Virus record (IMG/VR): IMGVR_UViG_2778261567_000018
Source: a virus
Taxonomy: Duplodnaviria; Heunggongvirae; Uroviricota; Caudoviricetes
Length of the DNA stretch: 6,287 nt
Strand: one strand, 5' to 3'
In this document: positions 3,001 through 6,000 of the stretch, in pieces
Position numbering within the stretch: position 1 is the first letter of the stretch
Layout of the letters: every line of letters starts with the position of its first letter
Program-made: the position numbers

Positions 3001-6000
3001 TACGTAGCAGGTCACCTATAATGTTGTGCTGCACTGGCTGCACTGGCTGCACTGGCTGCACTGGCTGCACTGGGGCGATATTTGGTTTTTTGTCCACTTC
3101 CCTTGCAACTGCCTGCCAGATGCCATTTTTTACAGTTACTACCCCCTGGTTTTTTAACTTCCATAGAGTGTCAATAACGTCATTCAAATCAATATTGAGA
3201 CCTTTAGAAATACTTTCGGCTGATGCTTTTCCTAATTTGTTCAATTCTGTGAGCACTGCGTTCATTTTTTTCTCCTGATATTTTAATGTCGGTGGGGCTG
3301 TTATACGGTTAGTGAGGTGTCAGCTTCTTCTACCAGCTTTTCCAGTTCATCCAGCTTTCGGGAAAGAATTTCACCAAACAGATGAAGTTCTGCATCTGCT
3401 GTAATCGGGATTGGAACAAATCGTATTCCACTTCTGGCAAGTTGATTTGCGATTTCCAGACACTGCCTTAATTCAACTGGTGATGCCTTTGTCAACGTCG
3501 TTTTTTCGCTCATTGGTTTTCTCCAGAAATTTAACAATACCCGGAACCATCTCAATGGATGGTGTGCCGCATTGGTTACCCCATACATCAAATCCATGCG
3601 AGGTGTGGCGGGCGAACAGTTCTATCCGGGGAACATCGCCAAGAAGTTGCACAAGTTTTTCTCGAGCCATATCCGGCTTGCGGGAGTGATCAAGGCGTGG
3701 TGCAGTGAATGACTGGATTATTCCGGCGTTAATGCGTTCGGGCAGATTTCCTTTCACTGCAAAAAGGCAGTCTTCGCTGTTAGCGCGAGTGGTGCTACCC
3801 ATACCCATGACCAGCTTGTCGGTCTGTCTTTTCCCGCATTTGTTCCAGGTTAATCCTTTCATCGTCACCAGACGAAAGCCCCACGCTTCTACAACCTTCA
3901 ATGCTTCAAGTGGTTGTGTAGGCACCCACCACATAGCCAACAGGCAATTCTCGGCTGCCAGTTCCCATACCGGGAGGCGGCAGATATCCAGAAGACTCAT
4001 GACCGGATATTTAAAACTTGCACCGCGTTGACCATCGGTTGCTTTGTCGCGGAATGTCCAGGGGGGATCTGCGTAAATGAGGGTGTATTTTTTCGTCATA
4101 GCGCGTTTTCAAACTCATCAATGTAAAGTCCTGCTTTAATCAGTCGGCGACGGCGTTCGGCCTTTTGCACGTATTCCTCGCGACAGTTTTTTGCTGCGTG
4201 TTCACGGCTTCTGCGACTGAATGGAGGAACGGCATTGCGTGAGCGAGGTGTGTCACGACGAGGATTTGATTCGAGGGAGAAAAAGCGATCAACGATTCCG
4301 GTGTCTGTGGTGAATGGTTCTGAAGCCTTTATTTTCACAACCTTACTGCCCTTTGTCAGGCCGCGAGCTACCTTGTTGAACTCGCAAAGTGAAACACCAA
4401 ATTTCTCTGCTATTTCACTGCCAGTAACAGGACGACCACGAGACTGAATCATCCAAGTGACGCGTTCTTTTAACCCACGGAAGGCACCGGGCCTTCCAGA
4501 ACGCCTGTAGAAAGCGATCTGTTTCAAATTTTTGTCTCCAGATATGAAAACCCCGACGGGATGTCGGGGATGGTAGGGGAAGTTACAGGCTTAACGAGAA
4601 GCCTTTTCGGGAATTTCGATCTGACAATCTTGAAATATCCTGTAGCGTGCGGCGCATTTCTTCCGTCAGATGCTTGAAGGCGTTAAATTCAGCGACAGCT
4701 GCGTCAACGTTATAGCCTTTGCTGTGTAGCTCGTTGAGGATGCGCATAGTTGGGCTTGGCATGTCGAAGAGCACAGAAACGTCCAGGTTAAGAGTTTTTC
4801 GATCAACATAGCTCATCATGGAGTAGGGGTGGTGCTCTGAAAACCACGATAGAGGGTAGTTGATGTTCATTGGTGCAGGTAAAAGGCTCTGGCGAAGTTT
4901 CTTTTCGCACTCGATGAAGTATCGGCGGATCTGGCGGCCTTTTTCGTTACGCTCAACCATCGCCAGTTCTTTGGCTGTGTCGAGAGTTAGGTGGTAGTCC
5001 TTGCTACGGCGATCACCTCCTCGCCCTTTGGTTTGCCCATTTTGGCAAATCAAAATATAGTCCTGGCTTTCAACGAATCCATATTCAGCAATGCGTTCTT
5101 TAACCCAGTGCGCGAACATTCTGCCCACACCAAGAAAAGAGTGTAGATCACGAGCGTTAACTAGAAGAATTGTTTCGTTGTCGATAGTGCCGTTGAATAC
5201 GGGGATGAGTTGACTGGTCATGATGACCTCCTTTGAAGTTTTAGTTAGCAATCACCAGTTAGTGGCTGGTGATCGGGTGTCAACTAGAGCCTTCAAAGAT
5301 GCTCCGGGCATATTCCCCTTGCGGGTATTGTATTACGCCTCTCCACCCGACCTTTGTACGGATGTGACTATGCCAAATTGCAGGCATAAAAAAGCCGCAA
5401 AGCTATCGGGTGCGGATGACCGCTTTGAAGTTCTAGTGCGGTCAGTATGCGATAGCTCTGGCGGATTTGTCAAATCATGTAGGCCTTATCTTGCTGTAAG
5501 CCGCGCCATTCGGGCTTTTCCCCAGATTTGGGGGAAACTATCTGCGAAGTATTCACCTTTGACGGCAAGTTGCAGGTTAGCCACGGTTAACCTCCTGCGG
5601 CGGTTCTGGTAGCGGCATCCAGTGTGTTACCTGCTCAACACCATTGCCCGGCTTAATCGTTGCTTCTCCTCGCCGAAAGGTGCTTCCGGTATAGCGTGCG
5701 GAGCATATTAGCGGCTCAACCAGATCACTATCGAAATTCACCGAAATAAGTACGTTCTGATTCTTTTTCGGCATTCGCTCACTACAGCTTATCCAACTAT
5801 CCGGAGTTACCGGAGAGTTACTAGCCTCATAAGCGGATTTCATCCAGTGCGTAAGCGTTTCGATGCTTACACATCCGCAATCAACGTCTATTTTTTCTTT
5901 TTGTTCTGACAACCATTCCTGGAATGACAGCTTGGCAGTCTGGCTTGCTGGATCAATTCGTGGCAGGCCGATATATAGTGGTACATTTCCCGGCTCCATC

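Follow-up and report, generated by a model that had tools for sequence, protein, structure and literature searches.

A c4-type antisense RNA of the sRNA-Xcc1 family predicted to gate an AntA-domain antirepressor-like gene in Shiga toxin prophages

A stretch of 6,287 nucleotides (nt) of viral DNA (Caudoviricetes; IMG/VR record IMGVR_UViG_2778261567_000018), hereafter the window, contains the gene ant for an antirepressor-like protein (4583-5221, minus strand). We found that the region upstream of ant, which a preliminary description had called a structured leader, is judging from its sequence more than a leader: it is a gene for a c4-type antisense RNA with covarying targets at the ant ribosome-binding site. 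From these features and from analogy with known systems the locus is probably a 'secondary immunity' cassette, complete in itself, of the P1/P7 immI or Gifsy-1 isrK-anrP design. Over its full length the window shares 98.8% identity with the Stx2a phage Stx2_H27V05_wrbA, and its positions 548-5819 share 99% identity with the O104:H4 outbreak phage P13374 and the relatives phiON-2011, TL-2011c, and phi191. These matches identify it as the int-proximal end, the early-left arm, of a short-tailed Shiga toxin (Stx) prophage inserted at wrbA. Features are given in window coordinates and lie on the minus strand unless stated otherwise.

The leader of ant contains an sRNA-Xcc1 RNA

The stretch 5263-5352 matched the Rfam family sRNA-Xcc1 (RF02221) on the strand of ant with 65.4 bits (E=1.4e-10; model positions 1-87 of 87). 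This exceeds the gathering score of 53 and places the RNA in the family, so that the presence of a structured leader is supported well beyond chance. The minimum free energy (MFE) fold of the leader RNA (-31.7 kcal/mol, z=-2.07) has the topology of the Rfam model. A closing stem (5352-5344 with 5279-5271) encloses hairpin 1, which carries the invariant core AUACAAUACCCGCAAGGGGAA, hairpin 2 (5305-5286), whose loop b' reads UCUUUGAAG (5299-5291), and a junction segment a' (UCUAGUUG, 5288-5281). The 3' tail ACCA directly follows the closing stem.

The helices are maintained by compensatory changes. In an alignment of 61 sequences, 86% of the cells in the helices could pair as compared with 74% in shuffles, and cells with double changes numbered 112 against 44. 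None of 500 shuffles reached that number and every slid control was lower. These values were obtained by explicit counting of pairs; a plain MAFFT alignment did not keep the stems in register, and RNAalifold run on it detected no helix other than the invariant CCC/GGG hairpin. The tail past the closing stem was kept as N-C-C across the family, with C at the second tail position in 98 of 111 loci. The ACCA or N-C-C tail is consistent with 5' maturation by RNase P, for which a tRNA-like stem and a 3' CCA would be the guide, and c4 is reportedly an RNase P substrate. A 21-nt core of hairpin 1 (AUACAAnACCCGnAAGGGGAA; 5333-5313) was nearly invariant from Pseudomonadota to Acidobacteriota, Bacteroidota, and Planctomycetota and is not found in c4. 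Conservation of this degree points to a tertiary contact or to a site at which a protein or an RNase binds.

A further hairpin, AUCACCAG-CCACUAA-CUGGUGAU (5251-5273), has an 8-bp core and includes bases of the ACCA tail and of the final 3 bp of the closing stem. When 5275-5225 was folded separately, the MFE structure (-16.8 kcal/mol, z=-4.06) was more stable than that of any of 200 shuffles, and contained a 10-bp stem (5275-5249) that consists of the 8-bp core with one additional pair at either end. Many related loci had a hairpin in the same position, which may represent an alternative fold or a signal for processing.

The hairpin-2 loop covaries with the ribosome-binding site of the adjacent gene

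The loop b' is the exact 9-bp complement of b2 (CUUCAAAGG, 5238-5230) in the predicted ant mRNA, and b2 overlaps the Shine-Dalgarno sequence AAGGAGG (5233-5227), which is located 5 nt before the ant ATG. Upstream of b2, the junction segment a' is complementary over 6 bp to a2 (UAACUA, 5247-5242). A second pair of sites is located on the other side of the RNA: a1 (ACUAGA, 5437-5432) is the complement of the junction segment UCUAGU, and b1 (CUUCAAAG, 5430-5423) is that of the hairpin-2 loop. The window has three copies of the 8-mer CTTCAAAG, counting its complement as well, where 0.31 copies are expected.

To see this arrangement across the family, viral contigs were scanned for the invariant hairpin-1 core. 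The scan yielded at least 120 stretches, of which 113 loci were analysed. A second and independent set was drawn from bacterial genomes across many phyla and had 110 loci, so that both sets together comprised ~220 loci. Each loop was also tried on the leaders of the other loci as a control, and perfect complementarity of at least 7 nt was counted as a match. The downstream sites were compared with the hairpin-2 loop alone, since TTTCGAA is common to many loci and inflates the control when a' and b' are pooled. Among the viral matches listed, which contained 81 distinct hairpin-2 loops, 43% of the loci had a loop that matched its own downstream target, as compared with 2% in the controls. In the genomic loci, with 84 distinct loops, the values were 54.5% and 4.6%. 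A b1-like copy upstream of the RNA was even more frequent, being found in 75% of the 113 viral matches listed (controls, 7.7%) and in 85.5% of the 110 genomic loci (controls, 12.4%). In the listed viral matches the target of the loop sits just 5' of, or over, the Shine-Dalgarno sequence of the locus' own gene and is usually followed by GAG, AGG, or GGA, and the open reading frame (ORF) starts at a stereotyped distance past the hairpin-1 core. The loops vary and the targets vary with them; the pairing between the RNA and the ribosome-binding site is very probably functional.

The genes that follow the RNA belong largely to a restricted set of families. A Pfam search of 115 distinct downstream ORFs of the listed viral matches detected P22_AR_C in 21, Bro-N in 15, KilA-N in 15, P22_AR_N in 12, AntA in 12, ORF6N in 9, and Rha in 5. 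In the genomic set, Bro-N (24), Rha (8), P22_AR_N (5), ORF6N (3), AntA (2), and KilA-N (2) were found. A SymE-type toxin (PF08845) was the gene after the RNA in four genomic loci, and many of the remaining downstream ORFs in this set were 50-130 amino acids (aa) long and had no Pfam match. Six loci from Xanthomonas and Rhodanobacter (L126, L130, L132, L142, L149, and L158) kept the b1-like upstream site, and a downstream target was not detected in them. These copies may be orphans or truly trans-acting, and perhaps correspond to the integron-cassette copies of Xanthomonas.

Promoter-like and terminator-like sites flank the RNA and ant

A σ70 promoter-like site was found at 5444-5473 (TTGACA at 5473-5468, an 18-nt spacer, and CATACT at 5449-5444), which agrees with the consensus at 10 of 12 positions. 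Across the family, sites with at least 10 of 12 positions were present in 47 of 200 loci, whereas two control zones gave 4 and 0, and the -35 element of the window lies at the typical distance. A terminator-like hairpin (CCGCA..UGCGG, then C and U6; 5388-5415) could be read from the sequence between b1 and the RNA. It would end a short transcript containing a1 and b1, similar to IsrK. The MFE fold of this copy alone was unexceptional (z=-0.58). A run of at least five U residues within the 78 nt before the RNA was nevertheless present in 91 of the 113 viral matches listed, as compared with 20 and 8 in control windows, and the stems of the hairpin covary between loci (CCGCA/TGCGG, CCAAC/GTTGG, and TATCGC/GCGATA). 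Moreover, the Rfam isrK model matches the corresponding stretch, a1/b1 plus terminator, in P1 and in the third cassette of P13374 described below.

Downstream of ant, a hairpin resembling an intrinsic terminator is located at 4541-4569 (CCCCGACAUCCCGUCGGGG followed by UUUUCAUAUC; CCCCGAC-AUCCC-GUCGGGG, then the UUUU of UUUUCAUAUC). The GC-rich terminator proposed earlier has the right form, that is, a 7-bp stem with six G-C pairs (centroid, -13.4 kcal/mol) and a U run. It is not statistically exceptional, because its z was -1.5 and a scan of the window gave three terminator-like sites when 2.8 were expected. Terminator function at this site is plausible. With a promoter-like site of its own, a dedicated regulatory RNA, and the terminator-like hairpin downstream, the proposal that ant is regulated apart from its neighbours appears sound. 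A LexA box (CTGT-N8-ACAG, at most one mismatch), as would be expected for LexA-controlled antirepressors (Gifsy, 186 Tum, and the SPC32H type), was not found in 5222-5576, and control of ant by LexA through this leader was therefore rejected.

Ant combines an AntA domain with a homologue of the SPC32H antirepressor

The ORF of ant (ATG at 5221-5219, stop at 4585-4583) was confirmed at exactly the previously given coordinates and encodes 212 aa. The gene is labelled antB1, 'anti-repressor', in the record of P13374, and the RefSeq product name is 'antA/AntB antirepressor family protein'. An alternative in-frame TTG start is present at 5251; homologues nevertheless begin with MTSQLIPVFNG. The assignment of the N-terminal half to the AntA type holds: residues 21-92 (4946-5161) matched PF08346 (AntA/AntB) over model positions 1-68 of 68 with 97.5 bits against a cut-off of 27 (E=7e-28), which places the protein in this family. 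This was the sole Pfam match in the protein, and the Pfam search detected none of the P22_AR_N, P22_AR_C, and ANT/KilAC domains. In the AlphaFold2 (AF2) model the AntA region adopts an alpha/beta fold, with a predicted local distance difference test score (pLDDT) of 70-81. When the full-length model was searched with Foldseek, the top neighbours of the N-terminal domain were DNA-binding domains of the APSES/KilA-N type, none of them significant (E >=0.13).

The C-terminal ~100 residues had been described as matching nothing. This is true for the Pfam, NCBIfam, and PADLOC searches: the C-terminal half alone gave nothing better than E=0.09 in Pfam and no match in NCBIfam or PADLOC. It does not hold for PHROGs, in which phrog_377 covers the full length of Ant and phrog_1760, phrog_995, and phrog_17980 cover the C-terminal part (all 'anti-repressor' families), nor for the antirepressor Ant of Salmonella phage SPC32H. 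When the whole protein was compared with PDB sequences by phmmer, residues 130-198 matched chain E of 5D50 ('Anti-repressor protein', 86 aa) with E=0.011, and a profile built from 18 diverse members of the C-terminal domain matched the same chain (5D50_E) with E=2.3e-5. Alignment of the domain with the SPC32H ant product by hhalign gave a probability of 91-92% (E=5e-7 to 9e-7) over 48 columns with 33% identity, in which Ant residues 149-197 are aligned with SPC32H Ant residues 24-71. We thus regard the C-terminal domain (residues ~118-212, 4586-4870; homologous core at residues 149-197, 4631-4777) as a homologue of SPC32H Ant on the strength of these profiles. The homology strengthens the antirepressor reading and, together with the AntA domain, supports the antirepressor-like class to which the protein had been assigned.

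Domain searches and structure prediction of the C-terminus, as suggested in the preliminary description, gave a divided answer: the sequence profiles reach 5D50_E, and Foldseek returned no significant match. The predicted models had pLDDT values of 61.5 (full-length) and 66.7 (C-terminal domain), and both show a helix-loop-long-helix in the part homologous to SPC32H Ant. The link to 5D50 therefore stands on the sequence profiles.

The domain is rare and mobile. A HMMER search with residues 105-212 against 1.84 billion representatives found only 24 clusters (50% identity), in which the domain was always C-terminal or stood alone in a protein of ~99 aa. Word-indexed homologue searches with the domain alone and with its profile returned little beyond Escherichia coli fragments. 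In other E. coli prophage proteins, the C-terminal domain (75-100% identical) is joined also to ORF6N and Rha N-terminal domains. Conversely, the AntA domain (97% identical) occurs with P22_AR_C instead of the present C-terminal domain in a very common protein of 207 aa (P0124). Some part of the ~950-bp region comprising the RNA and ant matched 675 of 5,426 complete E. coli genomes, and at least 80% of it was present in 79. Many of these matches end at window position ~4892, which corresponds to residue ~110, the junction between the two domains.

Comparison with immI and other antirepressor systems

The cassette closely resembles immI of P1 and P7. In the P1 record, the promoters P1c4 and P2c4, a1, b1, the 77-nt C4 RNA, a2, b2 ('repression of icd ant translation'), icd, and ant1/ant2 are annotated. 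P1 b2 (GUUAGUGA, with GG after it) precedes the icd ATG by 10 nt and has its complement in the hairpin-2 loop UCACUAAC, and P1 a2 (UUGACAG) is complementary to the junction CUGUCAA. In the window, likewise, a promoter-like site, a1/b1, a structured RNA, a2, b2 at a ribosome-binding site, and an antirepressor-like gene follow one another in the same orientation. In both RNAs a closing stem encloses two hairpins, the second of which bears b' in its loop; a' is found in the junction 3' of it, and the RNA has an ACC tail. The pairings that define c4 are found in the window as 9 bp between b' and b2 over the Shine-Dalgarno sequence, 6 bp between a' and a2, and a duplicate a1/b1 upstream. There are also clear differences. 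RF02221 belongs to no clan, whereas C4 (RF01695) is in clan CL00128, and the c4 RNA lacks the invariant 21-nt hairpin-1 core of sRNA-Xcc1. In P1 and P7, icd is located between b2 and ant; in the window the ant ATG directly follows b2 and the Shine-Dalgarno sequence without an icd-like ORF. P1 Ant1 has a KilAC/ANT domain, whereas the window protein has AntA plus the SPC32H-Ant-like domain. Finally, P1 and P7 are plasmid prophages and the window element is a lambdoid Stx prophage. The C4 model matches P1 (68.8 bits), and since neither Rfam model detects the other family, the link to c4 is drawn from architecture and mechanism rather than from demonstrated common descent. The window locus thus seems to work like immI, yet its sequence lies outside the C4 family.

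In layout, the cassette may also correspond to isrK-(orf45/STnc1160)-anrP of Gifsy-1, in which a short terminated RNA from the cassette promoter, a complementary RNA, and an antirepressor-like gene follow one another; a1/b1 and the hairpin with U6 are the sequence features of the window that would fit the short RNA. Translation from the long Gifsy-1 transcript, which arises by read-through, is off and is switched on in trans by short IsrK, and a stable processed RNA complementary to IsrK comes from the region between IsrK and the gene (PMC4825925). Expression of AnrP induces the prophage (PMC4825925). In that study the middle region was taken to be a translationally coupled orf45, and the locus was likened to P4 rather than to c4 (PMC4825925). 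The Rfam isrK model had no match in the window at E <=1.

The RNA of phage N15 acts by transcription termination, as in P4, and P22 ant is under the control of an antisense RNA (sar). N15 immA (antA-icd-antB), the source of the Pfam name AntA, is similar to the window locus in that its antirepressor is, as far as it is cited in PMC4488713, 'controlled by a small processed RNA' (Ravin et al. 1999). P22 Ant and the late-region ant of Phi24B are likewise antirepressor-class phage proteins. The Phi24B gene was described as similar to P22 Ant (Fogg et al., PMC3064807), which fits the late-region P22_AR_N plus ORF11CD3 type of P13374, and by this description the window gene was rejected as Phi24B ant. 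The published experiments on Phi24B ant were thus most likely done with the late-region gene of the P22_AR_N type, and the induction phenotype of Phi24B ant ought not to be assumed for the window gene.

SPC32H Ant is a stand-alone protein of 86 aa, whereas its homologue in the window is the C-terminal domain of a 212-aa protein. As described in PMC9638917, SPC32H Ant is tetrameric, binds two dimers of Rep, and breaks up the Rep tetramer that binds DNA.

A model for RNA-gated synthesis of Ant and its alternatives

These features suggest the following model. Transcription would start at the promoter-like site (5473-5444), so that the first bases of the transcript carry a1 and b1. Many transcripts probably end at the hairpin with U6 (5415-5388) and would form a short decoy RNA. 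Read-through would produce the c4-type RNA of ~90 nt (5352-5263) and then the ant mRNA. The loop b' (UCUUUGAAG) is predicted to pair with b2 (CUUCAAAGG) and to cover the 5' part of the ant Shine-Dalgarno sequence, while a' would pair with a2 (UAACUA). Such pairing, either in cis or after processing to a stable small RNA (sRNA), would block ribosomes, and Ant would normally be absent. Ant would be made when the RNA is scarce relative to the mRNA, for example right after infection, or when the RNA is titrated by the short a1/b1 RNA. Ant would most likely bind and inactivate a CI-type phage repressor, either that of its own phage or that of a co-resident prophage, leading to lytic development. 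Since Ant carries an AntA domain and a domain homologous to a whole antirepressor, repressor binding is its most likely activity, and we hold with moderate confidence that the protein is a repressor-binding antirepressor.

Several observations weigh against this model. The CI protein of P13374 is similar to λ CI (3bdn, E=4.8e-92) and contains an S24 peptidase domain, so that it should be cleavable through RecA and is unrelated to SPC32H Rep. A phage with such a CI has no evident need for an antirepressor, and a repressor similar to SPC32H Rep was rejected as the phage's own. A cognate Rep-type repressor is thus not present in the Stx phage, and Rep homologues were found only in 36 records of epsilon15/phiV10-like phages. 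The match to 5D50 spans only ~48 residues with ~33% identity, and 5D50 was not recovered when either low-confidence AF2 model was compared with the PDB by Foldseek (the best E was 0.13 with the full-length model and 6.3 with that of the C-terminal domain). SPC32H-type antirepressors are made after LexA self-cleavage in the SOS response, according to a review of Salmonella prophages (PMC7380047), whereas the window cassette has an RNA gate in place of a LexA box. On the RNA side, the Rfam C4 model had no match in the window at E <=1, and the sRNA-Xcc1 model had none in P1 c4 at E <=10. The pairing between a' and a2 is short (6 bp, one of them G-U), and the family statistic for it is weak (mean 5.41 vs 4.66). 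Some Xanthomonas-type copies of sRNA-Xcc1 lack a downstream target, and in the literature the RNA is regarded as a virulence-linked sRNA that acts in trans (PMC2996969, PMC12189769).

The mode of RNA action and the activity of the protein can be considered separately. The RNA might never be released and might act purely as a cis-acting leader, in which the loop-Shine-Dalgarno and junction pairings form a long-range pseudoknot that a1/b1 opens intramolecularly. All partners are indeed located on one predicted transcript within ~215 nt, the long Gifsy-1 transcript has alternative intramolecular structures (PMC4825925), and the overlap of the 5273-5251 hairpin with the closing stem and the ACCA tail suggests alternative folds. 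However, Northern blots of Xanthomonas showed a stable sRNA-Xcc1 of ~88 nt, the ends of which were mapped (PMC2996969), P1 c4 is annotated as a separate RNA species, and the conserved N-C-C tail resembles c4 and the 3' end of tRNA, which fits processing. An exclusively cis-acting leader is considered unlikely, and the cis and trans modes can coexist. It is very improbable that sRNA-Xcc1 acts here mainly in trans on host virulence or physiology genes, with its place upstream of ant being incidental. The literature describes it as trans-acting, controlled by HrpG/HrpX, and having many predicted targets in Xanthomonas and Xylella, and the copies without a downstream target would agree with such a role. 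A conserved host target would, however, require a conserved seed, whereas the 81 and 84 distinct loops match the ribosome-binding site of the adjacent gene, locus by locus, far more often than those of other loci. The strong association of the RNA with one class of neighbouring genes also argues against such a role as the main one, although some action in trans on other targets is conceivable.

It is also conceivable, though we consider it rather doubtful, that Ant is not an antirepressor and is instead a DNA-binding regulator or a toxic effector directed at the host, in which the C-terminal domain would be an oligomerisation module and the RNA would silence the gene as in type I toxin-antitoxin systems. 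The nearest structures of the N-terminal domain, which are not significant matches, are DNA-binding domains, and the helix-loop-long-helix predicted for the SPC32H-homologous part would suit an oligomerisation element. The SymE-type toxins found behind the same RNA and the host-killing KilA protein of P1, which consists of KilA-N and ANT domains, point in the same direction, and a resident CI that is cleavable through RecA needs no antirepressor. On the other hand, a solved structure and a known function are available for a single relative, and this is a genuine antirepressor, which acts by direct binding to its repressor (PMC9638917), and P1 Ant, N15 AntA, and Gifsy-1 AnrP, which are under analogous RNAs, are antirepressors or prophage inducers. 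We therefore prefer the repressor-binding model. Which repressor would be bound cannot be read from the C-terminal domain, because an identity of 33% does not allow repressor specificity to be deduced. A target for cross-talk among the Rep-type repressors is conceivable. The carriers of Rep include phiV10 (O157:H7) and TL-2011b, and a single E. coli O103:H25 outbreak strain was the source of both TL-2011b and the ant-bearing Stx phage TL-2011c.

Three cassettes in phage P13374

P13374 has three genes with this C-terminal domain, namely antB1 with an AntA domain, ORF26 with an ORF6N domain, and ORF29 with a Rha domain. A second sRNA-Xcc1 (79.6 bits) was detected upstream of ORF26, and its loop ACUACUUG pairs with CAAGUAGGA at the Shine-Dalgarno sequence. 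The third cassette consists of C4 (77.4 bits) and isrK (61.8 bits) upstream of ORF29, and CCUUGAUU pairs with AAUCAAGGAGG. The second and third RNA cassettes are located at 4985-5068 and 5904-6091 on the minus strand of L123, which is the stretch 8000-30000 of the P13374 record. Since the three b' sequences differ, the three predicted gates should not cross-react.

Annotated coding sequences (CDSs) overlap these RNA genes at 4957-5103 and 5848-5987 of L123 and at 5220-5612 (plus strand) of the window. The 48-aa 'antB2' of P13374 overlies the second sRNA-Xcc1, and this CDS looks spurious. The first 46 residues of ORF29 (MVGCMGPTSVGLVPLIASCSNPVQ...) are the translated C4 RNA gene and match Pfam Phage_ASH (PF10554, E=1.2e-7). 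Entries named 'Ash family protein' (P0011 and P0136) have the same N-terminus as ORF29, and some 'Ash' annotations may thus be translated c4-type RNA. ORF11 of P13374 corresponds to a 130-aa ORF on the plus strand of the window (5220-5612), runs antisense over the entire leader, and also looks spurious.

Implications for prophage induction and for the sRNA-Xcc1 family

Shiga toxin is made only upon induction of the Stx prophage, and an RNA-gated switch of Stx prophages may affect this induction. Because it would be independent of RecA-mediated CI cleavage, an RNA-gated antirepressor-like protein is a candidate for an SOS-independent route of induction and for prophage cross-talk in enterohaemorrhagic and enteroaggregative E. 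coli (EHEC/EAEC). We tentatively propose, as a generalisation that has somewhat less than an even chance of being right, that sRNA-Xcc1 is a second, very widespread c4/immI-type class of 'RNA immunity'. In this class, a programmable two-site antisense RNA with a target decoy and a terminator would gate an adjacent gene of the AntA, Bro-N, KilA-N, P22_AR_N, ORF6N, or Rha type in phages and prophages of many phyla, and in O104:H4-type Stx phages three non-matching gates would converge on one repressor-binding activity that could influence Stx induction or prophage cross-talk.

The ant gene and the RNA family had each been catalogued already. What appears to be new is the mechanistic connection between them, the assignment of the C-terminal domain, and the arrangement of three cassettes in an Stx phage. 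In the literature we found no link of sRNA-Xcc1 to c4 or to the ribosome-binding site of its neighbour, although our coverage was incomplete and an earlier description is possible; one preprint reports a copy of sRNA-Xcc1 upstream of an ORF6N gene in APSE phages. Under this proposal a curated Rfam family, which several recent papers hold to be a virulence sRNA acting on targets in the host or in plants, would be reinterpreted. If the proposal is right, target prediction for sRNA-Xcc1 should begin at the ribosome-binding site of the neighbouring gene. It would also account for the spurious annotations over these RNAs, that is, 'antB2', the N-terminal 'Ash' extensions, and the antisense hypothetical ORF, and it ties the 'unassigned' C-terminal domain to a structurally characterised antirepressor. 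The more than 80 natural pairs of loop and target could serve as a ready set of translational repressors with distinct specificities.

Gene order in the window

The first ORF (1-579), which encodes a flavodoxin-like flavin mononucleotide (FMN) reductase, is presumably WrbA, as judged from its sequence. It is followed by the integrase gene (576-1910), the excisionase gene (1939-2238), several small genes with domains of unknown function (DUFs), the MT-A70 DNA methyltransferase gene (3473-4099), a gene for a 143-aa phrog_1680 protein (4096-4527), and ant, all on the minus strand. An intergenic stretch of 355 bp separates ant from a DUF551 gene (5577-6200), which lies on the same strand.

The flavodoxin-like gene (wrbA) belongs to the host, reaches the end of the prophage, and overlaps the integrase stop by 4 nt. 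From the start of this ORF and its overlap at the prophage end, insertion of the phage seems to give wrbA a new 5' end rather than a simple truncation. The start of the methylase gene likewise overlaps the gene for the 143-aa phrog_1680 'regulatory protein' by 4 nt, in an ATGA-type coupling. A DUF1382 ORF (3301-3597; 98 aa), in which residues 35-93 match Pfam, shares 125 nt with the 3' end of the MT-A70 gene and is read in a different frame. A DUF1627-type ORF (2885-3265) contains a PVQ repeat (PVQPVQPVQPVQPVQ), which at the DNA level is a 9-bp tandem repeat. Its homologue in P13374 is 354 bp long as compared with 381 bp here, indicating that the number of PVQ repeats differs among phages.

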